Shown here: positions 15,330 through 64,000 of the stretch, piece by piece
How the letters are laid out: each line of letters begins with the position of its first letter
How positions within the stretch are numbered: the stretch's first letter is position 1
Assembly: GCA_033238685.1 (NCBI GenBank)
Contig: BRZM01000133.1
Coordinates: 156,481 to 220,480 of the forward strand
DNA from: Lates japonicus
Lineage: Eukaryota
Direction of reading: 5' to 3'
DNA length: 64,000 nucleotides
Notes under the pieces: model-generated
What the model saw: only the letters and a program-made list of their open reading frames with translations
What the model was told of the DNA's origin: nothing
Database searches by the model: none
Made by a program: the position numbers and the translations under genes

Positions 15330-15625
15330 CAGTCAGTCCTCTCTCCTCTCTCACTCTCTCACTCAGTGAGTTTGTTGTTTCCCTCGGGGGAGGTGGGGGA
15401 GGTGGGTGTGTGTTCTGCCTCCCGCTCTGTGGAACAATAGTGTTGGGAAAGGAAGTGTAGAAGGGGCCCAGCTCCGAGTCCTGGCTTTGTTCCTGAGAGC
15501 TGCTCCACGCCTCGAGAGCCTCCGTCAACACAAAATAACCCCCACCCTCCACCCTCCTCCCTCCTCCCTCCTCCCTCCACCCTCCACCCTCCTCCTCTTC
15601 CTCCCTCCTCGTCTTCCTCTGACAC
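15330..15625. repeat. Polypyrimidine/polypurine low-complexity tract with (CCCTCC)n-like and (CTCT)n units.
   Basis: 'ctctcctctctcactctctcactc…' and 'ccctccaccctcctccctcctccctcctccctccaccctccaccctcctcctcttcctccctcctc'. The strand asymmetry is strong. The overlapping ORFs 15265..15660 are composition artefacts. Confidence 0.75.
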
Positions 15626-18419
15626 AGAGTCACGGCCAGGTTACAGCTCAACGCCTCCATAACACAAACACACTTTAAAATGTCCGGCTCTCACTTCCTC
15701 ACACACACAAACCACTAACAACACAACTCACAGCCTGTGCACATGTTCACTGCAGCAGACGTCATGTTGCTGATATCTCAGTGTTTCTGTGTCTGTCAGC
15801 ATCAGGAAACACAGTTAAAGCCATGACAACAAGTCCCAACGACCAGACGTCCACTCATTACAAGGTAAAGTTGTAATGGATCTTAAGTAATCAGAGAAAC
15901 AAGATGAACAGCCGCTCGTGTCCGCCCAGAACGTCACAGAGAAACACTGATTCACTGAGCTGAGCTAACGTTAGCAGCAGCTCTGCTAACAGCCTGCAGC
16001 CTCTGACGTCCTCTGATTTACTGATGTGCAGCTCAGAACACGTCTAAATGATGAAAACAGAAAGTCCAGGTTCACCTGCTCAACAGACCAGAGATCAGTT
16101 CTGTTTTTAATGATGTGCGTAACTCTCACAGTTCAGGTTATAGGAGGAACCAGACGCAGTTCATGGCAAACTTCAGCTTCAGCTGCTGATCTGGGAGCAG
16201 TGATCTCAGAGGGTTAAAGAAGCTGCTCAGGTAAAGACACAAAGGAAACAAAGAGAAGAGGAGGAGGAGGTGCAGAGAGAGAGAGTTTTCTTTGGCTGTG
16301 AAAGAAGTTCCTGCTGTTTCATGACAAACTGAAAAACTAAGAGTTGTGATTCTGTTAAAAACAGAAGCTCAGTCGGGTCGGTGCTCAATGAGATTCAATA
16401 ACTGATCTGATTCTTTAAACAAACAGTCTCTGCTCTGTCTTTAGACAGAAACATGAAATCTATCATTTAGTCTGTTTCCCTCCGAATCGTCCAGAACAGC
16501 CGAGCACAGCTGGCAGATCTGTGGTCATCTACAGGTTCATGTTTATTCTGATGTTTCTCAGGAGTCGACAGAACCTCACGAGGACCTGGTTTCTGTGTCG
16601 GTGCAGCAGGAGGCTCCTGACGGCCTCATTCACACTCTGCTGTGGAAACCCTGATCAGACCTTCAGGTCGTCCAGACCAGACCAGACCAGTCCTCAGAGA
16701 AGGACAGTGTGGACACAAACGTGAACAGTCTGACTGCAGGGCACCAGCTAACAGGAGCTGATGGAGAGTCGACGGTGCGGTGGCAGTCGACTGCTGCTGA
16801 GTGGACGGTAAATATCCACATTCTGACAGCAGCCTGTTAATGAGACACTCCATGTCTCAGGAAAAGAGTCTGAGTTGTTCTGAAGGGAATTTGATCAGAG
16901 ATCTGCAGGTTTAAAGCTCAGGGCTTCAGTTGGTGTGTTGAGATTCAGAATGACCAAAATGAGACATAAGACAACTACAAAGAGACAAAGAACGACTACA
17001 AAGAGTCTTAAAACAACAACAAAGAGACACAGAGCTACTACAGAGACACAAAATGACCAAACTGAGACGTAAAACAAGTCATGTTTTGTCGGTGCAGAGT
17101 CTCAGGGTGGGGTGTGATGTGTGTGCTGTGTGTTCCTGTTTCTACCCGAACCTAAAACAAGAAATGCCTCAGCTCTCCACACGTATTGTTCAGAGCTCCA
17201 CGCCCGTTCCTCTGCTCATAATGGACGTTTTCCTCAAGAACAAACCTCCATCTTTTCTGGACAATCTTAGTTCCCCACCCTCTCCGCCCAGCCTCCGACA
17301 TGTGACCGGGCATGCCTGCTTTGGTGGGCAGCGTGGGCGCGGCAGATCGAGCCTCCGCTAACAGTAACAGAGATAAGGTGACACATTAACCACAGCAGCT
17401 CTGTGGTGTTTCATCTGATACAGCTACAACATGAAAACTGCAGGAACACTGTGTTTCTTATGTTACCAGCTGTTTGTCCAGAGCTGAGCTCAGACACTGG
17501 TCACTGTGTTGATCCCGTCTTTACTGTTTTCTACTGTGTTTTGTCCACTTCAGTCTGTCACAGCTGCAGAGCTGCAGGGCGCCATGAAATTTGGATTCAT
17601 CATGATTTGACTTTTGTTGTAGCTGCCTCAGTTCACTCAGAGTCTCGGGCTGCGACGTGATGATTTATCAGAAATAAAAACGTCTGTTCTTTCAATTTAT
17701 CCTTTATATCGTGGCGTCGCAAAAGTTTCTGTGTTGATGTGGATGTGTGTGAGACTTTTGTCTCCATCAGTTATTTACACCTAAAAACACAAACCAGGCT
17801 CAAAAATAAAGGACTGATCTCTTTTTACATAGAAACAAAGTAAAAGTTTGGATTTATCTGTTCCACTCTGTGACTCAACTGCGACTTTACATAAATGAAC
17901 AATGTTTGTGTTTTATTGTTGTTTAAATGTGATATGGCTGTTTGAAACATACGACCTGTAGATGATCTACACAGCAGGAATTCTTGAACACTAACGAACA
18001 TATTGTCTGTAGAAACAAGTTCAGGGTAAACTCTTCTGATGTTACACTCCTCTGCAGCATGATGATATATATCGTTATCAGGATGTTTGAGATGTTTGTC
18101 ATGTTGCACGGCCCAGACTGAGTCTTACAGTGACTGAAGCACAAAACTAACTGTGCTGAGCTCAGGTGTCAGGTGAGTTTTACCTGTCTCTGGAGCAGTG
18201 GCAGAAAACCAGAGGCAGCTTCAGCCTCAGAAATGAAAACCAGACTAAAACTGACAGTAATCAGTAACATGAATTAATCCACATTTCTGTCAAAGACCTG
18301 AAACTGAATCAAACTCAGGAGCTGAACTCTGACAGTTTCCTCTCTGTGTTTCTGCCCTGCAGCTCCACATCTCCACAACAACTCCTCCACTTTTTCAGCC
18401 TGTGAGTGAGATTCTGTTT

Positions 18420-18800
18420 GAAGTCGACTTAAAGCCTCGCCGGGGAAAAGAGCAGCGAGAGTGTGCTGGCAGCGCCGCAGACGCCCGTGAGGCCGCGCTC
18501 TCCTTTCTCCTCTTTGTCGTCGGCTGAAAACTCGAGGAAACGCTCGGCGCTCTGTGTTTCACCGGAGTCAGATTCCAGCCTCGGAGAAAGGGGGGGTCGA
18601 AGGTTTTCGCTATGGGGTCCACATACCAGCACCATGACATCACCGCCTCAGCTCTTCCCCCTGCATTCAAACTCACTCTGCTGCTCTGACAATGGCTGGC
18701 ACACACACAACTCCAGGGATTTTAGGAGAGAAAGAACAACTGAAACTTTCAACTTCGAGTCCACAGCTGTGAGTCACGTCAGGCCGAGCGGCCGCCCTCC
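18420..18800. promoter_or_regulatory. CpG-rich island inside caskin2 intron 1.
   Basis: 'cgccggggaaaagagcagcgag…gccgcagacgcccgtgaggccgcgctc…gtcgtcggc…aacgctcggcgc…gtcaggccgagcggccgccc'. The overlapping ORFs 18463..18903 (+) and 18395..18706 (-) are low complexity with no recognisable homology. Confidence 0.35.
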
Positions 18801-19595
18801 AACTGATCCTGTTTTAAAGCGTCAGAATAAACAGACCTGGACAGACGTGCTTTTATACGCAGCAGCAGCCAAAGTTTCAGAGTGGAAATGCAGCCATTTA
18901 TAGCATCTCACCACAGCTCTGACCCAAATGACTGTTCTGTGAATTCCTCTCGTGCTCAGCGGTGGGAAATGTTCTTCAGTCAGAGACACATCAGAGTCAG
19001 ATACAAGACAGGAGACTCACCATCAACAGCTGAGCCTCTTCACAGAGAGGTTCACCAGAGAGGATTCTGGGTATTGTGTGCGGTACAAGTGAAAGGGATC
19101 TCTGTAATTGATAAACAGTTTTCTCTATTTAACATCAGAAAACAGTAAAATGCCTCTAAATGTTTATCTGACAAAACAGAAAGAAAACACATCATGGTCA
19201 CTTATTCTAACCTTACATCTAAAACCTTTAACCTGATGAAGGGTTTTAGTCATCAGACGTCTGAAGCTGATTCCACTCATGATTCATCTGCTGCTTGTTT
19301 TCATGATCAATCAATCAATCGTTTTGATCTATAAAATGTCAGGAAATACTGAAAAGTGACGACCACATCGTCTGGTTCAAAACCCAAAGATGTTTCATTA
19401 TCAGTGTGAAGAACAGGTAGACGCAGCACACACAGGTGAGTGAAACCAGAGCTAACTGATCACATGTAACAAAAACATGAACCTCAGACTTGCAGGTGTG
19501 AAAACAGCCTCAGTCAGTTATAAACTGAAACCTTCGGCAGGTTGGGTCAGTCTTAAAATCACTGCATCACTCTCTCTCTCTCTATCTCTGTCTCT

Positions 19596-20026
19596 GGAGC
19601 TGTAGAGTCTGATCTGTCATGTCATGCCTCCTGCTGCTCCCACGATCCTGCTCAACGACTGTTGTCACATTCAAAATGTATTAGTCTTATTGCTAATACT
19701 GTTTTTACTATTATAACTGTCATTATTATTTGTATAGCTATCATTACTGTTATTTATTTTACTTATATCTCTACATCTGCGTCACATCTCTTTCTCAACC
19801 CAACCGGTCGAGGCAGATGACTGCCCACCCTGAGTCTGGTTCTGCTCAAGGTTTCTACCTCTTAAAGTTTTTCCTCTCCACAGTTGCCTAGTGCTGCTCA
19901 TGGTGGATCTGTTGGGTCCCTCTTTGTAAATATTATATTATAAAGAGTACAGTCTAGACCTGATCTATATGCCTTGAGATGATTTCTGTTGTGATTTGGC
20001 GCTATATAAATAAAAATTTACTTTAA
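19596..20026. mobile_element. Dispersed SINE-like repeat (family B), about 430 bp. It starts after a (CT)n tract and ends 'gcgctatataaataaaaatttactt'.
   Basis: It is about 80% similar over more than 350 bp to the copy at 43013-43370. Both copies begin 'gagctgtagagtctg(g)atctgt…cctgctgctcccacgatcctgctcaac' and end '…ggatctgttgggt…tataaataaaaa'. Confidence 0.8.
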
Positions 20027-23000
20027 GAGCTGACAGACGAGATGAGATTTAAACCGAATGCCGAGAGGGAGCCTGAAAACATCTGCAAACTCTGTTTGAT
20101 GAAGGTGGCGACATTTGGAGGAAACACTTCTAATCTACACAAACACCTTCAGTTGCAGCAGAAGACTGAGGCTGACAAAGTGTAGAGAGACCAGACACAC
20201 AGCTCATCCATAGGTGGTGCGTTCGGGTGAAGCAGTAAATATAAGAAGGATGGTGAGAAGTGGAACATGCAATGCTGAGAAAACAACCTTCGCAGCATTC
20301 GTTTCAAAAACTCAGAAAGAGAACTCTACAGATGTTGAGCTGACACATGTCTTTTTCTGTAAAATGTCCACAAATGTTCAGTTTCCACACGGTGACGTCC
20401 CTGCTGTCGATGAACCACACCCACAGCGTGACCTGCAGCAGTGAAGCAGAACAGATGTGCTGTGGAAACACGGCGGTCAGGGCTTGACAAGATGCATTCA
20501 GTGTTCTTTAATGTTAACGGTCACATCTCGTAACCTCACAGTCACTCGGTGAGTCATGTGACCTCTGAGCTGCAGCGATAAAAGGCAACGACTCCAGTTT
20601 GAAACTTACAAAAGAGAAACCGACCAACGAGACAGAACATCCATTACATAACGCAGCAAATAAAGAGAAACTCCAGCAGCCATCATCTGCTGCACACACT
20701 GTATCCCACTACACAATATACACAATATACACAGGACATCGCCCCAAACCACGTTCATTATTGTTTTTGTTTTTTTTTTTCATTTCAAAGCTTCTATAAA
20801 AAGTGAAGAGAGGACCTGTTTCCTGTACGGCTGCTGCGAGCACGCTCACAGGCAGCTTCTTTTAGAGGAGGCTGATCTCATTATTCCAGAGAAGGTGTTT
20901 ATGTGGAAAATAAGGAGACCGATAACTATCAGCATGAGAGCATCAGTTCAACAGCAGTTCAACAGACGTCCCAGAGGCTGGAGACGTGTTTCAAAACTCT
21001 ATGTGGGTTAATTAGCTGAATTTCTGAATTTCTGAGGACTCTCAGAGAAGGAAATCAGTTTGTGCTCCTGTTTTTAGACAAAGGAGTAAAAATATCTTGT
21101 GAACAGTGATGAATCAAACTTTGCACAGCTCCTCAGACAATGCACAAATTCATTCATTTAAAATGAGTCGGGATGGAGCTGGATAGAAGAGATATGTCGT
21201 GTACGATGTATGTCGAGTACTTTTTTTGTTGATAGTTTTCTCTATTAAACTGTGAAAATGTCCTTTATTTCTTTCTTTATTTCTTGTTTTGTCCGACAAA
21301 CCTCAGATATTCAGTTTACAAAAAAAGAAAAGCAACAAACAGAGTTTTCGTCTGTCGGCCGTCTGGATTATCTCACTGTTTCACTGTCACTTTTTCTAAC
21401 CTTAGATCACTAATCTTCAACCTGAAGGATTTTAATCGTCAGACGTCTGGATCTGAAGTTATCAGAGAAACAAGCTGAGCTAACAGCCGCTCCTGACGTC
21501 CAGTGTCCACTCAAAAAACATTTTATTCAGTGTTTGACTGGTTTGAATCAGCTGCTCTGTTTGTTTTGGAGAGGAGGAAACCTCTGAGGGGAATTCAGCT
21601 CCTGAACCATCAACACTGAAGGAATCCTGACCCAGAAACAAGCTGAGGTAACGTTAGCAGCAGCTCCTCTGAGAAACACTGATTTAATGTGAAACTATTT
21701 TATTAAATGCTTTCACTGGGTTGAATCAGCGGGTCTGTTTGTTTTGACAGCAGTGGTAAAAAGAAAGAGCAGAGATTTCTTTGCTTGGAAAGACGACGGT
21801 GATTCGGGGAAGGATACGTCGTGACAGAACGTGAATGTGGGCATCATTGGTTCCAAAAGTCTCTGTTTTAGAGCCTCGAAAAGTCCGGAGTAATGTGGAC
21901 GCCAGGTGTTACCATAGCAACAGCGATGAGTTTTAAAACTAAAGAGTGGATGCTTGATAAAAACAGACCCAGAGTCAGTTATAGAAAATAAAGTCAGGCC
22001 TCTGTGGGTTTCTTCTCCGTCCTCTGGAGTCAGGACTAAAACCTCTGACAGCCAGAGGTCCTGAGGGCCCCCCCCCCCAGTCCCAACACAACACAGCAGC
22101 TTTGTTTCCCTTTTCAGAGGTAAGACTGCTTTAAAGCCTATAGGAGACCTGTCTGTTTAGTGGAGCAATTAAACATTTAACACTCCAACAGCAGAGTTGA
22201 CAGGCAAACACTATCAGCTCAGACACACAGGCAGAATTTCATGCACTGTCTGAAAGCTTTTAACACTTTCCCTCAAATCTGTCTCGTGTGGAGGAGAGAG
22301 GAAAGTTTCCCTCCTCACTATCCCCCTGGTTTATATTTGGTGTTTTGTGATGAGAGGGTGGAAGCAGAGCGAAGCAGCAGAGTCCCACCAAACTTCCTCA
22401 GAGTAAGAAGTGACTGACTGACTGAACAAACAGTCTTCTGTATTTGCTTGGCCTTTCCACAGAGCAGAGTACATTCGCTGTAAAGGAAACGTCCTGGTTC
22501 TGGGTCTCTCTTCACAGTGTGGATGGAGCAGCGAGGGTGTGAAGCTCTGAATTTGCTCCAGTTACATATGAGGCCTGTCAAGTGACTCAGTTATTCCCCA
22601 TTTGTCAGCAGGAAAACCAAGACGTTTGACAGCAGGCAGCAAGCAATTTGCACAGAAAACTCTGCACTAAATGATTTTCTGGAGAAAGACACACATTTGA
22701 AAAACTGGGTCTGAATATATGAGAGTCCCAGAATTCCTCTGTCCTCAGAGAAAGTTAGCGTTAGACTGAAACTGGCTCTACATCAGAACATATTACTACA
22801 CCTGTTATTGCTCTGTTTAACTTTGTTTTTCAGGTACGATTTCCCTCTAACTGAGTGATAGTCAGCAGATTAAACTGCTGGAATCAGACCCAGAGAGTTC
22901 AGACTGATGCTGAACTGTAGATCAGTTAAAGAGACTTAGGAGTCATTAAAAACCAGAGTTAGAAACAGGGTTTGTTGTTAAGCTGAGACATCCTTCGTCA

Positions 23001-26945: not shown

Positions 26946-27557
26946 AAATGTAGTGATGGTTCTTTTATCCACTATAATCCATCTGTGTGTTGCTGTGAGG
27001 TTGAAATATTCATGGAGGCAGCAGACAGACAGAGAGCAGGATCATCATCCATTTAGTTTTAGGATGGAGAGTTTCAGAAGGAGTCAGCTGCTCCTCTGCC
27101 TCCCTGCTGTCTGCACGTTTATTACCAGAGAATCAGCTGAGGTTAATGCTGATGAAGCTTCGTCTGGATTTTAAATCCACTGTTTTCTCCCTGTGTTTCC
27201 AAACGTGGCCATTTTAACACCAAGAAACTGCAGAGCGCTCCACACTCCTCCTGCATGTTTGACTTGGAGAAGAGAGTGAAACCAGCATGACTCTGCTCTG
27301 AAACCATAATAATACCAATCTAAACAGGAAGATGGATGAGAGGTCAGGATGAGGACACGTAGCAGACGACTGGATTATTTAATAACTGTTAAATAAGTTA
27401 TTTACAGAGCAAACTGAATTTATCAAACTTTAAATGTCTTTACCGATTTAAATTTACTCCCATCACACTTTTCAATAAATTACCAGTCACATAAATCTAC
27501 AATTATTACACTGGTCAGGCTGGAATTAATCCACACAGACACTCAGCTACAGCTTTG

Positions 27558-27817
27558 TTTAACCAGAAACATCTCTATATATCACTACCAGACTCCACTG
27601 ACAAAAACAGGGATTTTACTGGGAGCTGCTGGAATACCACTGCCTCCATCTGTTAGTGTGTCTGTGTTACTGTGTGGTACTTTTACTTCAGTAAAGTATC
27701 TGATTACTTCTTCCACCACTGAAAGTCACACAGTAACACACACATACTAACAGATGGAGGCAGTGGTATTCCAGCAGCTCCCAGTAAAATCACAGTTTTT
27801 GTCAATGGAGTCTGGTA
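27558..27817. mobile_element. Foldback, MITE-like palindromic element (family A), complete hairpin core. The arms of about 110 bp, 'ccagaaacatctctatatatcactaccagactccattgacaaaaacagggattttactgggagctgctggaataccactgcctccatctgttagtgtgtctgtgttactgtgtg', flank a loop of about 50 bp.
   Basis: The left and right arms are near-perfect reverse complements within this copy. The same unit recurs at least 9 more times in the window. Confidence 0.85.
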
Positions 27818-27842
27818 TGAGAGCGGTATGAGCGTGACTTAC

Positions 27843-27936
27843 TGTTCCTGTTGGTTTTCAGCTTGGACAGCAGTTTCTGAGTGGACAGCAGGTCTCCGCT
27901 CTTCACCGCCTGCAGCAGGTCCTGCTCCTTCCCCAT
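27843..27936 (-). CDS. caskin2: caskin2 coding exon 1. It has a real ATG and encodes MGKEQDLLQAVKSGDLLSTQKLLSKLKTNRN.
   Basis: ATG sits in a CpG-rich context, and the exon ends AACAGGAACA|GTAAGT. The N-terminus resembles human CASKIN2 '[32 protein letters not shown]'. Splicing to 7144 reconstitutes the conserved KLLGSTKRLNVNYQD motif. Confidence 0.75.
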
Positions 27937-28300
27937 GCCCGCTCCCCGCCTCCTTGTGTTTAAACCAGGTTTATTTAAAATCCTCCCGCCGCCTCCTCAG
28001 AGTCTCATGCTGAGCGCCGGAGACATGGACCTGCCTCAGGTGAGACTCTCCACTTCCTCCCTGTGTCTGACGCTCAGCTGACAGCCAGGAAACAACCCCA
28101 GACTCAAACTGTAAAAACAAAAATCCTCTGTGAGATTTCCTCTGAGCCCGCAGAGATGGAAAAACTCCTCTGTTGCTTAATTTCCTGCTCAGACTTTTCT
28201 TCTTCTCAGTTTTGATTCTGGGGGAGATGTTATTTCCAGCGTCGGCCGAGGGGGGCTGGAGGTTTGTGGAGCTACTGTGGATCTGCAGGGGGAGGGTGGT
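27937..28300 (-). promoter_or_regulatory. caskin2: Probable caskin2 5'UTR and core promoter, in a CpG-rich region.
   Basis: CpG and GC-rich sequence lies immediately upstream of the caskin2 ATG on the minus strand (ccgccgcctcc, gagcgccgg). The TSS was not determined. Confidence 0.4.
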
Positions 28301-28821
28301 GGTGTGGTCAGGACTCGGAGCCTGAGGAGGAAAAGAAACGAGAAAAACAGATCAGTTCATCTATCAGACGACTCCAGACTGGAAACCACAGCCGCTCTCT
28401 CCTCTGCTGCATGTGTGGACGTGAAACCAGAGAAACCAAAGCAAAGTTCTTCATCGGACCCCAAATCCACTCAGTGGATCCTGATCCTCATCCTTATCAA
28501 ATCTGAAGTCTGCACAGTGACAGTCAGGCCTCAGACAGGAGCTGGAGGACTCATCACATTTCTGACATTTGAACTTGAAAACATGACGTTTCTTTGCTGC
28601 TTCCTTCTGTTTAATGTCACAGTAAAGTGAACATCTGTGGTTTTCAGGCTGTTTAACGAACAAACCAGACATTTATCACCGTGTTCTCATGTTTGATGAA
28701 CCGACAGTTATTCACATTGACAGGAACTGACCTTCATCCCCTGTGAAGTTCAGTGTCAGTAAATGTTTCTGCTGTTTGTTCCTCATTTACATCGTCTGTC
28801 ATGACGCAACGTTTCACATCA

Positions 28822-29152
28822 AGTGTCTGACAACATGATGATAGGATTCCTACAGAGACAGAGCTTTTTATTAAAGAGGAAGATCCTTTTAGTTTAACCA
28901 GAAACATCTCTATATATCACTACCAGACTCCATTGACAAAAACAGGGATTTTACTGGGAGCTGCTGGAATACCACTGCCTCCATCTGTTAGTGTGTCTGT
29001 GTTACTGTGTGGTACTTTTACTTCAGTAAAGTATCTGATTACTTCTTCCACCGCTGAAAGTCTCACAGTAACACAGACACACTAACAGATGGAGGCAGTG
29101 GTATTCCAGCAGCTCCCAGTAAAATCCCTGTTTTTGTCAATGGAGTCTGGTC
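28822..29152. mobile_element. Family A foldback element with its 5' extension of about 80 bp ('ctgacaacatgatgataggattcctacagagacagagctttttattaaagag…agatccttttagtttaacc').
   Basis: It shares the same arms and loop as 27558-27817, plus the conserved 5' extension also seen at 32473, 45768 and 58549. Confidence 0.85.
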
Positions 29153-30699
29153 TGATTGACTCCATGCTGAAAATGAAGACTGTGGTTATGAGCACCAGGC
29201 TTCTGCACATGAACGTCACTGTGGGTTTCCAGTCTTATCTGATGTGATGTTAATGTGGCCTGAAGGCAAACAGGACAAAGATTTACACACACACACACAC
29301 CTGTCACAGGTGTGGTCAGGGCTGTGAAACCACAGTGACGGAGTGTTTAACCTCCTGTGAGCTGAGAGGACGCTTTAATTACAGCTCAGCAAACCTTCAA
29401 ACACAAACAGCTCATGGAGGATGTTGCGGGCGGCCTCTGCTGTGTAAACACTGAGAGCAGAGATTCACACACCAAACTCCACTGACTTCTTCCACGTTTT
29501 TACACCAGAGGAATAAGTGATGTTTTAGGTCACCTGACTGCGCTCTCTGCTGCTTCCCTCAGGGCTCCACGATAGATTACACTCTCACTTCGGCCGTGCA
29601 TCCACTTCATCTCAACTCCAGAGCAGCTACTTAAACTCTTCCGGCCCAGTGGCCAGGCACAGCTCAGATACAGGAGGGACAAGTTGGCAGAGTTGGTCCG
29701 AGCTTCGTCTCTGCTCCAGTTTTGCTGCAGATAACTGACATGCCTGCTGACAGTCCTGATCTCTGCATGGAAACAGGATCACTGCAGCAGCTCCAGGCCT
29801 CAGGAGCAGTGTTGCCATATAAACAACAGGAGTGTTTGGGGGGGCGGGTGTTTGCAGCCGGATCCCAGAGTCCAGATAGAGACACTGGTCTGGCCCTGCA
29901 CCCTGCTCCGAGTCCTGCTTTGTTTTCCTGGTTACAACTTGTTTCATTACATAACCAGGAGCCTCAGAGCAGCACAGGGCGTAAGCAGAGCTGTCAGTCC
30001 CATTTACACCCATCATGTCCCCCTTTCTCTCCCACCTCCCTCAGGCGTTTTGTATTCTCACTGCATTCATGACAAAAGCAACAATACTCATAAATTTCAC
30101 TCTGACACTGCAGGAGCTCCAGTTGAAATGAATAAAACATTTTATTGCTCACAAACAAACACCACTTGTTATTTATCACAGTGAAGTCAGAGATGCAGGA
30201 TGAAGAATCTCACCAGATTTAAATGATCTGTTTCAGTGTGTTTACACCAAAGGTCTGGATAATACAAAAAGCTCCAACCAACTCCAACATGTGTCGTCCT
30301 TTTTAATGTTTAGGTAATGTCATTCCAGCCTCCATTCGAAATCTGCCACTTTTATATTTAAGTGTTCATCAACCAACATAAAACAGCCTTAATGGATATG
30401 ATTCCAAGTTTCCCTGATTTAATAAGAGTCTGTCTTTAAATCGGGAGAAAGTAATGCACAAACAATCCCTTCTGAACCTTCTCACTGGAAGTCTTGTTTT
30501 AAATGTCGGACACTGACCGCAAGTTAGCAGGCACTGTGTCCGACTCTAACTTGACATTTTACTAAATTTAAAGTGTTGCTCTGTGAGGTTAAAGTGCGCC
30601 GAATTGAAGACGTGTTTCTAAAGACGCAAAAAAGTCTTTATTTTATTTTATTTTTATATTAAGCTCATTTTCTGACAAACGACTCCAGGTTAAAGAGGT

Positions 30700-31400
30700 G
30701 TCGACATGACGCTCTCTCTGCACCGTAGAATCTGGCGTTTCGCGGCCGGAGTCTGGTATGTAAACACACCGGGGGGAAGCTTCCCCGTCACCTCCACCAG
30801 CTTCGACCTTTGTACCGAAGTAAGTTCACGCACTTGTTCTTCTTTTCCCAAAAAATCCAGAACAATAAGGAGAAGAAAGTGGATTCAAACCGGACTTACC
30901 TCTGCTGGTCAGGTGTGTCAGAAACTTTTCATCCGCTGAATGTTAACGGACCACGGAGGCAGTTTGAGGGAAGACTCCGAGGGGCTGACAAAGTATTCCC
31001 ACTGTCGATATTCCAGAAGAATCCAGTATTTTATTCCACGGTGTGAACTTCCACCGGTATTAGTTTGTACTTTCACCGCTGCGCAGAGTTAACGACAGAT
31101 TTCTGTAGGTTTTTTTACGACTTTCTCACTTCATCCGACGCTGACGCTCCTCCGGCTTTTCCCTCCGCGCCGTGAATGCCACATTCACTCCGCTGGATTC
31201 TCCAGAATGTGGACACGGTGTCAAGGCGCCGTGAACACAGCACGCAACATCCGGCTGTGACTTTCAAAATAAAACACGTAACCGAAAGCTCGGAGTCTCA
31301 TTTTAACGAACACGGATTTCACCCGGATTAGACGACGTTTCTCACCAGATACAGCGGGTTACGACTTAAATCTATCACACGTCCACTGTTTATACATGTT
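30700..31400. promoter_or_regulatory. CpG island between caskin2 and st6galnac2, with divergent consensus splice donors. It is a candidate bidirectional promoter or unannotated first exons.
   Basis: CpG density is high ('cgcggccggag', 'ccgcgccgtg', 'ccggcttttccctccgcgccgtg'). There are GTAAGT donors on the plus strand ('ccgaa|gtaagttc', about 30820) and on the minus strand ('cagcagag|gtaagtcc', about 30903). No conserved coding frame was recognised. Confidence 0.4.
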
Positions 31401-32472
31401 TATATAAGAATAGTCTGCTCGTTGTTGAGTCGAAATCTGGAGGTAAATGTATTTAATTAAAACATTTTTTCTGTTAATAAATAGAATAAACTTGAACTCC
31501 ACTTACTTCCAGAATTATACTATAAATACAATATGTACGTGTTCAGCTTAGTTTTATGATATAGGCTGTAACCAAACTCTAAACTCTGGAGATCATCCTC
31601 TCTACTGGCTTGTGTCTGACAGTATATTATATGATGCCTGTAAATGTTTTGACACATTCTCCAGAGGAAATGTAACATTTTCTGTGCTTTTATTTCGAAG
31701 AGTCAACTGCCCCTTTTCCGGTTATTTTCTGTCTTTTATTCTGCAGCTTAACACCGTCGACCCTCCCACTGGGTTTAATGTCAATTTTTTCCACAAAGAC
31801 AGGGTGTTTTATCAGATTATATCTAACTGTCACCATCCTGCTCCTCACACTCACACTTCACTTAAAGCTGCATTTACTGACTTTTTTGTCGCCTGTGAAA
31901 CGAGCTGTAAACACAATATTCTCACATGAAGCAGCTGATGAAGCAGCTGTGTCTGACCTGTTATCACACAGCTGCTTATTCCCACATCCAGCTGTTACAG
32001 ATCAACACCATGATTCATGTGGAGTCAGCTCTGTGTTTGGTCAGCTCCACCTCCTCCAGCTGATTTTACATGTAAAACAATCTGATCAGTTAAGAAAATA
32101 TGATGCGAGGTTAAATCCTGAAGATAATTTCTCATTGTTACATCAATAACACTCTAAGACTCAATAAAAAGGTAAAATAATCAACATATTTACTTCAGAA
32201 CAACAATCCCTGAAACATTTACTAGAAATTAAATATCAGTGCAAAAAGAAAATCCCATTTAACATGAAATTATTATATAAAATGTAACGTAGCATCATTC
32301 ATATAAAACAAAGACCATGTTCACCTGTAAAATAATTGCAGCTGAATTGATCAAACACACAATTGATCAAATCAACTTAATTAAATGAAATGTGCATAGC
32401 ATCTACAGTGTGTTTCTTGGTGTAAGAAAGACCATAAAGTACGTAAAAAGTCCTCCTTAAAGTTTCACCCTT

Positions 32473-32611
32473 TAAAGTTCTTGTTTTTGTCTCTGACAGA
32501 CTCAGATTGTTCTTCTCAGTGTCTGACAACATGATGATAGGATTCCTACAGAGACAGAGCTTTTTATTAAAGAGTCAGATCCTTTTAGTTTAACCAGAAA
32601 CATCTCTATAT
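32473..32611. mobile_element. Family A partial copy: the 5' extension and the start of the left arm only.
   Basis: It matches the 5' extension of copies at 28822, 45768 and 58549, and is truncated after 'catctctatatt'. Confidence 0.7.
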
Positions 32612-32933
32612 TATCTTGGTGTGCCAGCACGTTGCAACTGATCTATCATGTCTGCCTTTGTTTGGATGCATCTAAAAAAAAACATTACGAACCAATCAGT
32701 CATTCCACCTCATCAATTTCTTTTTGCAGTTTTTGTTGTCAGCGTGCAAAAGATCTAACAAATAATTTTAAAATAATTTCTTCACAGCTTTTTTACTCAG
32801 TGGAACAATGAAAGAGTTACTGTCAGTAAAGTAAAAATAAACTCTATTCAGTAAAATACCAAAATTGTTTAAAGTCTGTATAAAAAATAAATTTCACCCT
32901 GAGCTCCTTCTGCTCTTTAGTCCTGAGAACGTA

Positions 32934-33131
32934 TCATCCCCACCTCCTCCGCCAGCTGCCTCCTCTCCTCTGGTACAGGTCGATGACCCTGTTGTAGTGC
33001 AGCACCTCCCACAGCCGTCGCTCCAACTGAAAGTCGTGGTTGGAGTAGAACTTCAGAGGCCTCCTCACAGAGTCGTAGTAATGATCAGAGAAGGCAGCGT
33101 AGTCCCCGGTGATGAAGCCAAAAGCAGAGAC
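32934..33131 (-). CDS. st6galnac2: ST6GalNAc-I/II-family sialyltransferase, last coding exon (exon 9). It encodes VSAFGFITGDYAAFSDHYYDSVRRPLKFYSNHDFQLERRLWEVLHYNRVIDLYQRRGGSWRRRWG followed by a stop.
   Basis: Acceptor is ctgcag|GTCTCTGC. The translation matches the human ST6GALNAC2 C-terminus 'VSAYGFITSNYWKFSDHYFE…[28 protein letters not shown]' (sialylmotifs S/VS). TGA stop at 32934-32936. Confidence 0.88.
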   Translation of the reverse strand, partial: VSAFGFITGDYAAFSDHYYDSVRRPLKFYSNHDFQLERRLWEVLHYNRVIDLYQRRGGSWRRRWG

Positions 33132-33237
33132 CTGCAGGACAGACGGACGAACAGGACGTCCCTCAGTCATCAACAGGTCCATCTGACGACCAGGACTTCA
33201 TGCCTCTGGAGTTTATGAAGCTACTGCTGCAGGGAGC

Positions 33238-33325
33238 CTACCAGACTCCATTGATAAAAACAGTAATTTTACAGAGCACACAGGAGCTGCAGGAACACTG
33301 CTGCCTCCATCAGTTAGTTTGTTTA
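33238..33325. mobile_element. Family A solo arm, diverged, inside the st6galnac2 intron between exons 8 and 9.
   Basis: 'ctaccagactccattgataaaaacagtaattttacagagcacacaggagctgc…ctgcctccatcagttagtttgttt' is similar to the family A left arm. Confidence 0.6.
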
Positions 33326-33463
33326 AAAGATTAAAATAATGTGAAGTAGGAGCAGGAAATCCTCACATATGGCATGTATTGGAAGTACTTAATCAAAGTT
33401 CAAGTACCTCAAATTTGTACTTAAGTGCAGTACTTGAGTAAATGTAGTCGGTGTGTATGTTAC

Positions 33464-33566
33464 CTGGTCACAGGTGTGCAAGGCGGTCAGCAGCATCAGA
33501 GCTCCGGTGCTCGGCATGTACAGGTGACGAGTCCGGACATCGGTCATCAGAGGAGACTGAAGGAGA
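33464..33566 (-). CDS. st6galnac2: st6galnac2-like exon 8. It encodes (S)[34 protein letters not shown].
   Basis: Acceptor tcag after a polypyrimidine tract, and donor CAG|GTAACA. The translation matches human '[20 protein letters not shown]'. The second candidate acceptor 10 bp downstream gives an in-frame stop and was rejected. Confidence 0.82.
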
Positions 33567-40699: not shown

Positions 40700-40977
40700 C
40701 TATATATCACTAACTGTGTGGTACTTTTACTTCAGTAAAGTATCTGATTACTTCTTCCACCACTGAAAGTCACACAGTAACACAGACACACTAACAGATG
40801 GAGGCAGTGGTATTCCAGCAGCGCCCCAGCAAAACCTTTCTTGTTTTTGTCAATGGAGTCTGCAGTGAGCATGAGATGTTTCTGGTTAAACTAAAAGGAT
40901 CTTCCTCTTTAATAAAAAGCTCTGTCTCTGTAGGAATCCTCTCATCATGTTGTTGTGACTCTGTCAGTGCTGATCTC
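40700..40977. mobile_element. Family A copy in opposite orientation: loop, right arm and an inverted 5' extension. The left arm is deleted.
   Basis: 'ctgtgtggtacttttacttcagtaaagtatctgattacttcttccaccactgaaagtcacacagtaacacagacacactaacagatggaggcagtggtattccagcag…' is followed by the reverse complement of the 5' extension. Confidence 0.8.
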
Positions 40978-45422: not shown

Positions 45423-45767
45423 CTGCAACCACTCTGATAAAGGATTTATTATTTTTAAGAAGTAATGCTGCAAATATTTGCAGGTTGCAGTTTCTCAAAC
45501 ATGAAGATTTGCTTTTGCTTTTTCTTTGTTTTATATCACATTCAACGTAGTTCTGGACGACTGCTTAATAAAACCTGCATTTTCACATTTTCACATTTTA
45601 TAAAGTAAACAATAATTAAAACCATTGAGAAAATTATCTGTAGATTAACTAGATGAACATAATCATCTGTTACACAATATCAACTGCACTATTTCTCATT
45701 TCTCCATGTATTTGGGGTAAAATGACTGAGAGAGACAAAACTAAACTAAACTGTGCACCCCAGTGTG

Positions 45768-46132
45768 CTTGTTTTTACCACTGACAGACTCAGATTGTTA
45801 TTCCTTGTGTCTGACAACATGATGATAGGATTCCTACAGAGACAGAGCTTTTATTAAAGAGTCAGATCCTTTTAGGTTTAATCCAGAAATATCTCTATAT
45901 ATTATTATTAGATTTATTGACAAAATAGGATTTTACTGAGCCGTTGATTAATTTATCTGTTAGTGTGTTTGTGTTACTGTGTGTACTTTTACTGCAGTAA
46001 AGTATCTGATTACTTCTTCTACCACTGAAAGTCACACAGTAACACAAACACACTAACAGATGGAGGCAGCTGTAGATTAGCAACTCCCTTCTTCTGCTCG
46101 GTAAAATCCCTGTTTTTGTCAATGGAGTCTGG
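45768..46132. mobile_element. Family A near-complete copy (5' extension, diverged left arm, loop, right arm) in mxra7 intron 1.
   Basis: Both arms align to other copies, though the left arm is partly degenerate. Confidence 0.8.
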
Positions 46133-47329
46133 TGGTGATACATAAGTGATGTTTGTGGTTATATTTTGTACAGCTCACATACACCTGTTGGTCACCTGTT
46201 GTGTCACAGGTTGCAGGGACATAAAGCTGATTGTCAGTCTGGACAGCGGCTGTTGTTCGGGGGCAGCCAAGTGCTTTACTGCCTGTTCAAGATTAAGCAT
46301 CATCCTCTTCAGCAGATGGCCGCCCACCTCCAGCATTACCGCCAACACTGATACAGCACACACACACACACACAGTCAGTGTAAACAGCTGGTACAGACT
46401 GGCCAACATGTGCACTGACTTCCTGCTCGAGGAGTGTGTGTGTTTCAGGTGTGAATAAGCTTAAGTGTTGCCTTTTCTTCCTGAGCAGTGGTCAATCTCA
46501 TGGTCAGAGGATGAAAACCATCAGACTGATTGATGTTTTTTCTCTGAGTCTAAATCCATACAATCATCATGTGATGTATTATAATTCAACAAAAAAACCT
46601 GTGTCTGTGTGTTGTAAATCGACAGCTCTGCTCTGTTTACCTTCCTGAAATGACTCTATCTGTTGAGCATAAAACACGACATCAGCCTGATGCACCAGGC
46701 TGCTTTTCTACTCAAACATCTGATTCAGTGAAAACAAAAGAAGCCTCTGATCCATACAGATCCACTGAGATATCCTACATTAGAGCAGCTCGTCCTCAGC
46801 TCCAGCTCATCAGCATGGAGCTGTAGAGTCTGGATCTGTCACGCCATGCCTCCTGCTGCTCCCATGATCCTGCTCAACAGCAGCTATTACATTTAAAATT
46901 TATCAAAAATATATCTGGTGCACAAATTGCTTTTTCGGCAGCAACTAATTATTATTTTCATTATCAATTAATCTATTGACGACTGTGTTCGGCCACACTG
47001 ACAAATGTCCGTCATGTCTCTGGTGATGCTTTCAAATGTCTCGCTTTGACACTGAACAGAGAAAAGCAGCAAATCTTCTCAACACGGAGAAATCAAAACT
47101 ACAGAGGATCGAGTAAAGAACAAATTACTTCAACGATTAATCGATGATCGTACAGCTTCTGACTAATTGACTGATTTAATAATCGGCGAATCGTCAGAGC
47201 CTGGGCTGATTAACCTGTTTAATCTGAGAGAAAACCTGTTGAACAGGATGTTCGAGCCCATCCACTGAGACCCAGTTCTACTAAGACTGGACCTGAGCAA
47301 ACGAATATGACCGTATCTGGTCTAGATAG

Positions 47330-48060
47330 AACAGGGTCTTACCATTGCTGAGGACGGCCCTGGCAGGTTCTGGGTTTGAGCTTGGGTGACTCCTCTGGGA
47401 CCGGTTCAGGGTCGGCAGGCTGTCTCTGTAGAACCAGGGACCAGCCCGGTAGACTCCTCCACAACCTTCTCTGGTTCCGCCACAGGCTGCTGGACTCACT
47501 TCAGGTACCGGGTTCAGGCACCACCACAGGCTCTGGTTCTGGGACTGCAGTTGGTTCTGGGACAGTCTAGGTACTGATACTGTCTTGGGACTGCAGATGG
47601 TTCTGGGACAGGTTTCAGCCTGATACTGGTTCTGGACTGCAGATGGTTCTGGACAGGCTCTGTACTGATACTGGTTCTGGGACTGCAGCTGGTCTCTGGG
47701 ACAGGTTCTACTGATAATGGGTTCTGGGACTGCAGCTGTTCTGGGACAGGTTCTGTACTGATATCGGTTCTGGACAGGTTCAGGTACTGATACCGGTTCT
47801 GGGGACTGTAGCTGGTCTTGGGACAGGTTCAGGTACTGATACTGGCCCGCACAGGTTCTGGGCTCTGGAGTAGGTTCTGGTACTGCAGCTACTTTGTACT
47901 GCAACTGGTTCTGGCACAGTCTCTGGTACCAGACAGGTTCTGCCTCTTTACTGGTACTGCTGTATAGGTCTGGTTCTTGGACAGGTTCTACTTTTAGCTG
48001 GTACTGAACAGGTTCTGGTTTTACTGGTTCTAAGTTGGATACTGGTTCTGGGTATAGCCT
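47330..48060. repeat. Minisatellite in mxra7 intron 1, with imperfect units of about 45-50 bp ('…actgatactggttctgggactgcagctggttctgggacaggttctgt…').
   Basis: The motifs 'ggttctgggac', 'tgcagctgg' and 'tactgatac' recur in tandem across about 730 bp. The array explains the 262-aa ORF 47281..48069. Confidence 0.8.
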
Positions 48061-48295
48061 GAAAGACAAAAGGTTTTCAAACAGGATGAAAATGTAAAGT
48101 TACAGCGACAGTTGAACGGAGCAGTTGTTTGTTTTATCAGTTGTTGATAAGACCACATGACTGTCGCTCTGAAATAGAAGTGTTTCAACAGACCTGATCC
48201 AGATTCTGTAAACCTTATTGGTGAAACCCGTGATTCTATAAAGTACGCTATGAAAACAGATAAAATTCGTCTTTTGTCAAGGATTTATCAACATC

Positions 48296-55500: not shown

Positions 55501-57828
55501 ACACAGTGTCTGGAGTTCTTACTCAGTGGTGTCTGTCCAGACACTCCACCATGAAGACCTGACTGATGGAGGCTGCAGAGGCGGCCGTCCTTCAGGCAGG
55601 TTCTCCTTCTCTGAAGCTCTGTGAGAGACCGTTTGAGTTTGGACAGACGGCCAACCCTTACCCTAAGACGAGTCCTGGTGGTTCCAAACTTCTTCCATTT
55701 CAGTTACTGAGGCCTCTGAGCTCCTGGAAATAGTTGAATACCTTTGCCCTGATCTGCTTTGCCACAGTTTTATCACAGAGGTCTATAGAGAGTTCCTCAG
55801 ACCCTGTGGCTTGGGTTGTTGTCCAGACCTAGTGTGAATCATGGGACTACAGTTTGGAGATACAGCAAAGGTTGGTAATACTTTGGTAAATTTCAGTTTC
55901 CGATTTTTAATAAACCACGTCCTGTGTTTCAGTGTGAAGGAACACTGAGGAACTCATTCAAAGAAAACTCTGAAATGTGACTTTCCAGTGGGTAAAGATA
56001 CTTGTGGAACCAGTTCTGCCTCCTCAGCTCTGCAGCCCAGCATGGTGTTGAGTCTGAATCAGCAGGATGAAATAACACAGAGCAGACTTCCCAGTTATCA
56101 AACATCATATGAACCGGTGTGAAGGCGACACACCCACCTCCACCTCTCCCTGCAGCACCAGAGTCCATTTCAGACATGTGACACCATGAACATAGATGTA
56201 AATATAGGATTCATGTTTGGCACCAAATATAGCCGGTCAGTCCGTCGCATGTTACAGCAGCGGTGAGCACATTCTTCAGGCTTTTTAAAGGCCTCAGCTC
56301 GAGACGGAAAAAGGTCAAAAAGATCCAAGAAACAAGGGTCGACGTGGAGAAAGACCTCTGGAGACTAACCCTGTCCAGAGAGAGGTGTCTGTACCGCTGC
56401 AACAAAAACCTGATTTGCATGTTGGTGTAAAACCACAGCAACATTAGCAGACATTCAAATGGTTCAGGAGGGCGAACACACAGCCTGGTCTGTGGATGGT
56501 CCACGCTCCTCAAAACTCATCAACATTTTCATAAAGGCTCCGGACTGTGTGCACAAGCAAATCATCCAGTCATCGGCAGCCGTGTGAGGAAGAGATGGTG
56601 ACTATGTTTGGGCATCGGCCAAACGTCAACCGACGTGAGTCCAAAACCCTGTGATCAAACAGATAAAGTCCAGGAAGTTAATTCTAAAGCTACATCTCTG
56701 AGGACGCTGGTTCAAACTGTCCGACTCCTGATGAAGACAATTAATGATGTGGGAGGATGTAAATGCAGCAGGAGCTCGACTCTAAGCTGATAACACGGTG
56801 ACCCAGCAGCTCTAATAATCAATCAGACTGGATCAGCAGCCGCCGTCCCAGTTTGTCCCCCAGCAAGTCTGATCTGTGATCAATGACCCACAGCTTTAGA
56901 CAGAAATCTGATGCAGTAACTACAGGAATCATGTGATAATCCACCACGGCTCAGATACACGTCAGTCAATTCATGAAGACTGACACTGACTGATAGGAAA
57001 CATATCATCAATACACAGTTTAACCCTGAGGACGAAAAGATCAACCAGAAAAACAAATGAATCTCCTGCATGATGTTATCCTGAAGACCATGAGATGCAG
57101 CTGAAAGTCAGAGTTGACCTCACCTTAATGGACAGAAAATGTATCTGCAACACTTTATTAAACATCTGCTGCGTCTCTCTGACCTACAGCTCATTCAGGG
57201 ACGTCCCTGAGTATTTTGTCCTCGATTATTAGTCGTATAAATACTGAAAATGAGAGTATTTCAGTATCAGTGCTGCTGCCTGTGTGTAACAGTTTATTTA
57301 TCCTGACGATTCAAACTCAGCTTTCACACGTCTGTAGTATTACTTTAAGATGCAGCACAAAGACCAAGCTGTGCTGAGATGAATCAGTTGATTCATTTTT
57401 TGATCAATCAATTCATGGTTTGATGTGAATCACAGAAACATTTTCATGTGGAGAAAAGCAGCAAAGCCTCATGGGAGAAAATGGAACCAGAGATTGTTTC
57501 ATCAGCTGATTAATAGATTCATTCTTTCAGCTCTAATCATGTATTTATAAAGTTATAGGAGTCATGACGACACCTGGAACATGTTTCAGTATCTACAGTT
57601 TGAGAAAAGATTCATCGATTCATCGATTTGTCCGGTGTACAGAAAAATAATCACTGATCAGTTTGACATTTAGAAAGAAATTAAAAAATAAAAAGTTTGG
57701 TTACAGATGAGGACTCTGCTACTTTTTATTCCTTTAACAAACTGCACTACACAATAAACCCCTGTAGATATTAAAACTTTCCTTCGAGATCAATACATTT
57801 GTATTTGTTTGTGATCGATCGATCTTAC

Positions 57829-58089
57829 CTTCACCTGTGAGACCAGGACGTCCTGGATCTTCTCAGCGGCTCCGATGTCCTCCACAGCCGGAGCTGGAGG
57901 CTCGGGTCGGAGCTGCTCTCCCAGAGCTCTGGACGGAGGGACGTCGTCTCCGTAGCCGACTTTAGGCTTCTTGTTCCCGGCTGAGGAGGAGGAGGCGTCG
58001 GGCTTCTTGCTGAGGAGCGAAGAAGCGAAATAAATGGCAACGACGGTGAAGAGGATGGCGGGGATGATGACGGCCGGGTCCAGGTCCAT
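57829..58089 (-). CDS. mxra7: mxra7 coding exon 1. It carries a real ATG and encodes MDLDPAVIIPAILFTVVAIYFASSLLSKKPDASSSSAGNKKPKVGYGDDVPPSRALGEQLRPEPPAPAVEDIGAAEKIQDVLVSQVK.
   Basis: ATG at 58087-58089 is followed by an N-terminal transmembrane helix, consistent with the single-pass topology of MXRA7. The donor is AAG|GTAAGA. An alternative donor 6 nt upstream (CAG|GTGAAG) would drop 'VK'. The three exons encode 173 aa. Confidence 0.72.
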
Positions 58090-58548
58090 GGTGGAGGTTT
58101 ACTGAGTGAAAAGGTGAAACGCTCACAGTGTGTTTTCACACGTGTGTGTTGCTCGGGCTGCAGTCACACACACACTGAGCCGCATCCCGCCTCTACACAC
58201 TAACCTCAACAGCTGAGCGGACACCAGCTGACAAGACGCACACAGTGAGGGGGGGCACTACATCCGCTTTGGTTTCAAATTAAAAGCCGCTGCAGGAAAT
58301 ACATGTGCTGCCAGCTGGTTTTCAGAATAAAATACCGGTAGTTTGCGTTGACCAAAATATGCTCAAAATGGAGACAAATCAAATCTTCTGTCAGGTTAAA
58401 AGACAAAAAAGCAAAAGAAAACACTGCGACAAATATTTCCTCACAATAATTATGTATTAGTGAAATGACACAACCCTCCTTTATGAGTTCACTTAGGAGG
58501 ACTTATTTTCCATGTTTTCAGTGTAAATGATGAACATGAAAACATCAG

Positions 58549-58940
58549 AGTCCGTCCACTAAAGTTCTTGTTTTTACCACTGACAGACTCAGATTGTTAT
58601 TCTAAGTGTCTGACCACATGATGATAGGATTATTAAAGAGTCAGGTCCTTTTAGTTTAACCAGAAACAGCTCTATATATCACTGCCAGACTCCACTGACA
58701 AAAACAGGGATTTTACTGGGAGCTGCTGGAATACCACTGCCTCCATCTGTTAGTGTGTCTGTGTTACTGTGTAGTTCTATTACTTCAGTAAAGTATCTGA
58801 TTACTTCTTCCACCACTGAAAGTCACACAGTAACACAGACACACTAACAGATGGAGGCAGTGGTATTCCAGCAGCTCCTGGTTAAATCCCTGTTTTTGTC
58901 AATGGAGTCTGGTAGTGATATATAGAGATGTTTCTAGATC
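58549..58940. mobile_element. Family A most complete copy (5' extension, left arm, loop, right arm, inverted terminal 'ctctatatatcac…agaaacatctc') in the mxra7–jmjd6 intergenic region.
   Basis: The terminal inverted repeats extend to 'cagaaacagctctatatatcactgccagactcc' on the left and 'ggagtctggtagtgatatatagagatgtttctag' on the right. Confidence 0.85.
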
Positions 58941-62985: not shown

Positions 62986-63272
62986 CAGGCACAAAAACAG
63001 TCTCCCCGGGTTTCTGGAGGATCTCCAGCGGTGCGAACTCTGGAGGCCAGTTGGGCTGCTGCGTGCGGGGATAGACCACATTGAACCAGGTGATAGCCTC
63101 GTCCTGCTGGTTGCCTCCGTCCTCTCTGGTCACCTTGATCAACTCTCGGGGGGTGTTGGTGGGGAACAGGCACCACCTCTTGTGACCCTGAACCAGGGCG
63201 TTCCAGGCGCTGGTGCCCAGCGGGTCGATGTGGATGCCAGTGCCGGAGCGAGCCGGGCCCATCACGAACCAC
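62986..63272 (-). CDS. jmjd6: jmjd6 exon 3 (JmjC core). It encodes (R)[95 protein letters not shown](G).
   Basis: Acceptor ctgcag|GTGGTTC and donor CCTG|GTCAGT. The translation is over 90% identical to human JMJD6 '[96 protein letters not shown]', including the Fe(II)-binding HxD motif. Confidence 0.95.
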
Positions 63273-63358
63273 CTGCAGCAGAGACCAGATGAGAGGGTGA
63301 AGCAGGTGACACTGAACTCAACCATTCTACAGACAGTGATAAAATAAGAAGGTCAAAC

Positions 63359-63747
63359 CTGTACGGAGGTCTGCGTTTCTCTCCTGCAAACTGGAACAGG
63401 TCGTCTGTGAAGAAGACCGGGACCTGGTAGTCCTCCAGCAGCTTCCGGCGTTTGGCGTGTTCACCGTAGCTGCTGTCGAAGATGTAGAGCGGGCTGTCGT
63501 CCCTGGTGCTCTCCAGGTACTCCACGTAGTACTTCATCTTCATCTTCACAGAGTATCCATCGTTGTCCTCCCCGCACTTGAACTTCTGGTTGCGGTATTT
63601 GCGTTTGAGGCGCTCCAGAGTCCATTTCTCTCGGGCAGGCCAGTTCTCCTGGCAGTTCAGGAGGACGACGGGTTTGTAGGGGCGCTCGAAGCGCTGGATG
63701 AACTCTTCAGGGCTGATGTGGAGGGCGTCCACACGCTCTACGTTGTC
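63359..63747 (-). CDS. jmjd6: jmjd6 exon 2. It encodes [129 protein letters not shown](R).
   Basis: Acceptor tgttacag|GACAAC and donor TACAG|GTTTGA, with a 74 bp intron to exon 3. The translation is highly similar to human JMJD6 residues '[130 protein letters not shown]'. The first coding exon (Met to about residue 45) is beyond position 64000. Confidence 0.93.
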
Positions 63748-64000
63748 CTGTAACACAGCATTTATCAGTGTATTGTACTGTGCTTTCTCCTCTGTCCATG
63801 AGGAGAAGAAAAGATTTTAAAACTGTCGAACATTTAAAGCTTCCCTCTTTGTTAGGAACAGAGCTGTAACTCCAGCACAGACAGAGCTTTTTAAACAACC
63901 TCCTGCGTTTTTCAAAAACTGCAGCTCTTTCTAAAATCATTAAACATAAAGAAACTGAGGCTGGGTACAAACACACTCCTGTTTTAAAGAAAGCAGGTCA

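Follow-up and report, generated by a model that had tools for sequence, protein, structure and literature searches.

A CpG-dense block at positions 30700-31450 of the analyzed Lates japonicus DNA (a stretch of 64 kb, in the following called the window) probably comprises the CpG-island promoter and a non-coding exon 1 of the gene caskin2, which is encoded on the minus strand. Based on sequence comparisons, a probability of about 0.78 was assigned to this reading. Transcription would start at about 31200-31260, just downstream of the pair formed by TTTTATTTTGAAAG and GCCGGA(A/T)GT, and exon 1 would run to position 30900 and end at GAG/GTAAGT. A 2.6-kb intron would then be removed, and exon 1 would be joined to the acceptor 28322/28321 of the exon that carries the ATG. 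The features of the locus are the following:

30700..31450, no strand: CpG island with a high CpG observed/expected ratio (o/e) and a GC content near background (non-methylated-island type)
31261..31274, minus strand: TTTTATTTTGAAAG, marks where the conserved block begins on its 5' side and is present in each of the six aligned species
31247..31255, minus strand: GCCGGATGT (GCCGGAAGT in other species), putative ETS-like core, CGGA(A/T)G conserved in six species
31157..31186, minus strand: 30-mer GAATGTGGCATTCACGGCGCGGAGGGAAAA with the palindromic core GAATG-TGG-CATTC, nearly invariant across percomorphs
30900..31245, minus strand: putative non-coding exon 1 of caskin2, 3' end set by the donor, 5' end and transcription start estimated
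30894..30899, minus strand: 5' splice site GAG/GTAAGT of the putative exon 1, G at 30899, score 11.6, conserved
30820..30825, plus strand: GAA/GTAAGT, G at 30820, score 7.9, judged to be a chance match
28322..30899 (including the donor), minus strand: putative caskin2 intron 1 of 2.6 kb, with invariant motifs and discrete conserved elements
28322..28357, minus strand: 3' splice site of the ATG exon with a branch-like AACTGAT, 19 pyrimidines in 20 positions and CAG, conserved
27843..28321, minus strand: caskin2 exon 2 with 5'-UTR and the first 31 codons (ATG at 27936-27934), encoding MGKEQDLLQAVKSGDLLSTQKLLSKLKTNRN and ending with ACA/GTAAGT

Both st6galnac2 and caskin2 are located on the minus strand of the window. 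The last coding exon of st6galnac2 ends with the stop codon at 32937. The exons of this gene match the L. japonicus protein with 100% identity, and a 4.4-kb stretch of the window shows 100% identity with the L. japonicus assembly. The first coding sequence of caskin2 (MGKEQDLLQAVKSGDLL...) starts at 27936 and ends with ACA|GTAAGT (27843/27842), while the second coding exon is found at about 7140, 20 kb from the first. Exons of MXRA7-like and JMJD6-like genes lie further right in the window. The orthologous st6galnac2-caskin2 intervals of Toxotes jaculatrix (L002), Larimichthys crocea (L008), Thunnus thynnus (L009), Archocentrus centrarchus (L010) and Gadus morhua (L011) as well as two fish metagenome contigs (L004, L005) were used for comparison. 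In the following, "six percomorphs" denotes Lates, Toxotes, Thunnus, Archocentrus, Larimichthys and L004, and cod is outside this set. A second L. japonicus copy of the locus (L001) has a run of exactly 5000 N at 15504-20503 that covers the island region; this same-species copy was left out of the comparison. The order of st6galnac2 followed by caskin2 on one strand is kept in all orthologous intervals, including the five annotated genomes (Toxotes, Larimichthys, Thunnus, Archocentrus and Gadus). As is expected of a promoter, the island precedes the caskin2 ATG exon on the minus strand, at a distance of 2.6-3.5 kb and with no other gene in between.

The block contains 50 CpG dinucleotides and has a GC content of 0.48 and an o/e of 1.16, compared with an o/e of 0.44 for the whole window. 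It ranks first by CpG count among 1265 segments of 751 bp, the best non-overlapping segment having 42 CpG and an o/e of 0.85, and thus the CpG-dense block that had been described in the first-pass annotation was verified. Two sub-blocks at 30661-30920 and 31041-31360 have o/e values of 0.88 and 1.38, respectively. With 751 bp and an o/e of 1.16 the island surpasses the length (at least 200 bp) and the o/e (at least 0.6) of the Gardiner-Garden and Frommer definition, but the G+C content of at least 0.5 is reached only by the two sub-blocks (0.50) and not by the whole island (0.48). A value below 0.5 is to be expected, because fish islands have a GC content close to background: the non-methylated islands of zebrafish combine a high CpG o/e with a GC content almost as in the flanking DNA, and non-methylated islands mark promoters across vertebrates (PMC3583005). 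The position of the island is CpG-enriched also in six other fishes (Toxotes, Larimichthys, Thunnus, Archocentrus, L004 and cod), so that the conservation in other teleosts that had been proposed as a check was indeed found. The orthologous 800 bp have o/e values of 0.78-1.17 versus locus backgrounds of 0.39-0.68, and the island of cod is at the equivalent place. Including Lates, CpG is undepleted at this site in seven species in all, and the high o/e presumably reflects germline hypomethylation of a fish-type promoter island. An origin from a repeat or transposon was rejected, because the island is single-copy within the window and MITE-like repeats are found only in its flanks and not inside. 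The next CpG-richest blocks of the window are located at 57741-58360 (MXRA7-like first coding exon) and 63181-63820 (JMJD6-like exons); unlike the caskin2 island, they have an o/e of only 0.7-0.8 and a GC content of 0.53-0.55.

Among the observations that assign the island to caskin2 are the need of the ATG exon for an upstream exon and the conserved donor carried by the island. The island had originally been regarded as separate from a caskin2 promoter at about 28000-28400, but the ATG exon located there opens with a conserved 3' splice site, and this stretch is no promoter region. As would be expected for the exon that follows a first exon, it begins at an acceptor, CAG/G at 28322/28321, which precedes the caskin2 ATG by about 385 nt. 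A pyrimidine tract of this kind (19 of 20 positions) is present at only 2 of the 5066 YAG sites in the window. The acceptor is conserved in all six percomorphs, and cod has the homologous AG/CTCCGAG. Therefore, the ATG exon is an internal exon in these species, and a further exon must precede it in caskin2. The encoded sequence MGKEQDLLQAVKSGDLLSTQKLLSKLKTNRN recurs with 100% identity in annotated caskin-2-like proteins of both L. japonicus and L. crocea. The 5'-UTR part of this exon contains a conserved uORF (MSPALSMRL-stop, 28026-27997, minus strand), and a short form of it, ATG-NNN-CTC-TGA, is kept as far as cod. The conservation suggests that caskin2 may be subject to translational control.

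Annotated and transcribed sequences of other species also cover this region. In cod, an 83-residue gene model has its start within the cod island and its end in CTGGAAATAA, which is part of the 5'-UTR section of the ATG exon. This model lends weak independent support to the view that the region of the island and that of the ATG exon were joined by the annotators. Recovery of the exon structure of this model yielded no solution with one intron and 252 solutions with two introns, and a homology search with its fixed C-terminal part did not give a match. The sole spliced transcript contig that was retrieved from Logan (L003, SRR32360492) stems from a distant species; it starts with an adapter, and its 5'-UTR, which could not be aligned, is CpG-rich (o/e 0.95). 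The contig looks chimeric. In its positions 1-962 the caskin2 5'-UTR and ATG are preceded by coding sequence for caskin ANK repeats, an order that could result either from an assembly chimera or from a back-splice (circular RNA) junction. Lates ORFs that were looked up by exact sequence had no match, and no Lates transcript contig was found in the searched collections.

On the minus strand, sequence conservation starts sharply at about 31275 with TTTTATTTTGAAAG, continues with GCCGGA(A/T)GT and peaks at the 30-mer, while no alignable sequence was found upstream of TTTTATTTTGAAAG (31261..31274) among the species compared. TTTTATTTTGAAAG could be a TATA-like core-promoter element, and the CGGA(A/T)G core of GCCGGATGT at 31247..31255 is presumably ETS-like. 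The 30-mer GAATGTGGCATTCACGGCGCGGAGGGAAAA has 0-3 mismatches in Toxotes, L004, Larimichthys, Thunnus and Archocentrus and is located 2.0-5.8 kb upstream of the caskin2 ATG in each of these species. Its palindromic core is unique in the window, and the 30-mer was not found in cod. This near-invariant palindrome of 30 nt is the only item of the block that is unusual, and it is only mildly so.

Donor sites were scored with a simple donor matrix, and the background was determined from both strands (128 kb). The donor at 30899 has a score of 11.6, and only six sites in 128 kb score at least 11.6, which corresponds to 0.04 expected sites per 751 bp. In all six percomorphs a donor is present in the same aligned column, at a distance of 287-319 nt from the first nucleotide of the 30-mer. 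It reads GAG/GTAAGT in Lates, AAG/GTAAGT in Toxotes, AAG/GTGAGT in Thunnus, ACG/GTGAGT in Archocentrus, GAG/GTGAGC in Larimichthys and a weaker AAG/GTAAAA in L004. The donor is thus kept while its letters vary, which indicates selection for function, as in a used splice site, rather than simple retention. The end of the putative exon 1 is therefore formed by a 5' splice site under selection, and this donor is the only conserved strong one inside the island on the minus strand. A minus-strand consensus donor had been placed at about 30903; the GAG/GTAAGT is indeed present and unusual, but its exact G is at 30899. The first-pass annotation had also considered, as a fallback, that this donor might serve an alternative upstream 5'-UTR exon of caskin2. 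The upstream exon is supported, and more strongly than had been proposed, by the conserved donor and the matching conserved acceptor at 28322, but the term "alternative" is not, because the conservation of both sites indicates that it is probably the main promoter and exon 1 of caskin2.

The putative exon 1 (30900..31245) has a mean identity of 0.58-0.91 over four species, and an analysis of its RNA structure revealed nothing unusual (z = +0.34). Conservation does not drop at the donor 30899, but runs on for about 1.6 kb into the putative intron, and thus conservation alone cannot delimit an exon. Just inside intron 1 two invariant motifs are found on the minus strand, GGTACAAAGGTC at 30816-30805 and TGTTTAC at 30766-30760. 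They are followed by discrete conserved elements at 30150-29950, 29700-29600 and 29450-29300 with mean identities of up to 0.83 in four species, which are likely to be enhancers or an alternative 5' exon. A second conserved donor, CAG/GTGTGT at 29300, is kept in three species and is not accompanied by an island; it is contained in the palindrome CACACCTGTGACAGGTGTG at 29314-29296 (CACCTG/CAGGTG). With this donor, the gene may have further or alternative 5' exons, and parts of the block may act as enhancers only.

Several further elements were observed in the putative intron and elsewhere in the window. A strong hairpin at 29887-29986 on the minus strand (-48.5 kcal/mol over 126 nt) has a weak mir-486-like Rfam match of 17.7 bits. 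Although the sequences of both Lates and Toxotes form a good hairpin, three species lack the 3' arm or have a different one, and thus the hairpin is probably not a miRNA and was rejected as an intronic one. The intron also contains a MITE-like insertion at 28777-29173, which belongs to an inverted-repeat family with further copies at 27533-27838, 32473-32611, 40713-40953, 45761-46161 and 58560-58935; the copies are 91-98% identical. One copy comes immediately after the splice donor with which the first coding exon of caskin2 ends, and another has a sub-threshold MIR9555-like match of 33.7 bits. At 47284-48099 the minus strand contains an open frame of 272 residues, which is composed of 46-nt tandem units rich in P/E/V/Q and can be aligned with Toxotes at about 70%.

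The block had previously been interpreted as a bidirectional promoter for non-coding transcripts, which would be initiated in both directions and spliced with the plus-strand donors 30820 and 31443. Vertebrate CpG-island promoters commonly initiate divergently, and the plus-strand sites and the TATA-like string on which this interpretation relied do exist: the GTAAGT reported at about 30820 has its G exactly there, tttatataag (about 31403) spans 31399-31408, and the gtaaat donor at about 31440 is a GAG/GTAAAT with its G at 31443. However, these plus donors score 7.4-7.9, which is the background frequency, because about 0.8-1.1 such sites are found per kb and strand and 0.6-0.8 are expected per 751 bp. 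The donors at 30756 and 30820 are not conserved: at the positions aligned with 30820 the five other species have scores of at most 3.9 or lack the GT, and for 30756 they have scores of at most 5.9, most of them having GC or no site. A further plus-strand site at 30913 has a score of 10.0, but it is kept only in Toxotes. The region 31399-31443 cannot be aligned with any other species, and the pair of TATA-like string and GTAAAT would leave an exon of only about 10 nt. The donors had been described as divergent, but the plus donor (30820) has a lower coordinate than the minus donor (30899), and thus the implied exons converge and face each other. The sites 30756, 30820 and 30913 are all downstream of the putative minus-strand start and would produce overlapping antisense rather than divergent transcripts. 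No gene, snoRNA or other RNA family was detected downstream on the plus strand, and the sequence proxies did not reveal two head-to-head starts with stable transcripts within less than 1 kb. With plus donors at chance level, missing from four or five of the five other species and located on the wrong side of the minus donor, a bidirectional promoter of this kind is very unlikely, while generic unstable upstream-antisense transcription from the island is possible.

It is hardly conceivable that the block belongs to a separate plus-strand gene, either as a coding first exon or as a snoRNA host similar to SNHG16. A 77-aa ORF with an ATG starts at 30706 on the plus strand (MTLSLHRRIWRF...) and has in-phase (phase-0) donors at 30756 and 30820, but it lacks the ATG in L004, its differences to Toxotes are mostly non-synonymous, and no protein is on record. 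It was therefore rejected as a coding exon, in agreement with the earlier statement that the block does not contain a conserved ORF. A host gene is brought to mind by human SNHG16, a snoRNA host gene arranged tail-to-tail with ST6GALNAC2, and by a weak SNORD69-like match at 31923-32021 (19.6 bits, E = 7.4). Like SNHG16, the block adjoins the st6galnac2 3' end and is devoid of a conserved ORF. In contrast to SNHG16, it has no detectable snoRNA, and its conserved features are on the strand opposite to that of a tail-to-tail host. The SNORD69-like stretch does not have a D box beside the stem and is rich in E-boxes, and it was rejected as a snoRNA. An Rfam scan of the 64-kb window yielded no family at the gathering threshold, no tRNAs were found, and a permissive scan of 28000-33500 gave chance-level matches only; intronic C/D or H/ACA snoRNAs, as are typical of a host gene, thus were not found at gathering scores in 64 kb. 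A separate plus-strand gene is therefore effectively refuted. At 31932-32062 five CAGCTG E-boxes are found within 126 bp, and no other part of the window, which has 76 such sites in 64 kb, is as dense. The cluster overlaps the SNORD69-like match as well as a patch with 80% conservation relative to Toxotes. The putative caskin2 start follows about 700 bp downstream, and the cluster itself falls within the st6galnac2 3'-UTR or just beyond it. It may be an enhancer bound by bHLH proteins.

The block could also be an orphan non-methylated island or an enhancer, e.g. poised or Polycomb-bound, that does not give rise to a stable transcript, and exon 1 of caskin2 would then be located elsewhere. The discrete conserved elements throughout 31275-29270 and the invariant, transcription factor-like motifs GGTACAAAGGTC and TGTTTAC have indeed an enhancer-like appearance. 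However, the presence of a top-scoring donor that is kept at a fixed distance of 287-319 nt from the 30-mer, while its sequence changes, would have no explanation, and the ATG exon would still need an upstream exon. Between st6galnac2 and the acceptor there is no other island and no other conserved strong donor, with the exception of the site at 29300, which lacks an island. An orphan island is thus unlikely. It also seems rather unlikely that GAATGTGGCATTCACGGCGCGGAGGGAAAA together with GGTACAAAGGTC/TGTTTAC constitutes an undescribed regulatory module for neuronal caskin2, acting either as DNA or as a 5'-UTR element with a conserved uATG, or, alternatively, that a Lates-only antisense transcript that uses the plus donors overlaps exon 1.

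The reading as promoter and exon 1 of caskin2 is in accordance with known systems. The block resembles canonical vertebrate CpG-island promoters in having an o/e of about 1.2 across some 750 bp that surround the putative start, in its compact conserved core with an ETS-like motif, in a putative first exon of about 350 nt that ends in a consensus donor, and in an island position that is conserved across species. Its GC content is barely above background, as in the zebrafish non-methylated islands (PMC3583005). The GC content of 0.48 misses the classical value of at least 0.5, which is typical for fish, and nothing essential differs. The human ortholog CASKIN2 also starts at a CpG island: an island of 209 CpGs is located between CASKIN2 and TSEN54, near the start sites of both (PMC9687527). 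In contrast to the human island, which is shared head-to-head with TSEN54, in these fishes caskin2 is preceded by the 3' end of st6galnac2, which has the same orientation, so that a bidirectional arrangement would lack a partner gene. With bidirectional promoters and promoter upstream antisense transcripts the block shares a CpG island with GT sites on both strands, but it has no second gene, and its plus donors are at chance level, unconserved and convergent to the minus donor.

Taken together, the block is real and conserved, yet it is an ordinary feature and does not imply new biology. The plus-strand sites exemplify that a GTAAGT string alone is no evidence of splicing. The island represents a clean example of fish promoter islands, which are recognized via their CpG o/e and not via their GC content. 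For the annotation of Lates, the start of the caskin2 model should be placed about 3.3 kb before the ATG, so that the island holds a non-coding exon, and the gap between st6galnac2 and caskin2 would largely consist of intron 1 and the promoter of caskin2.
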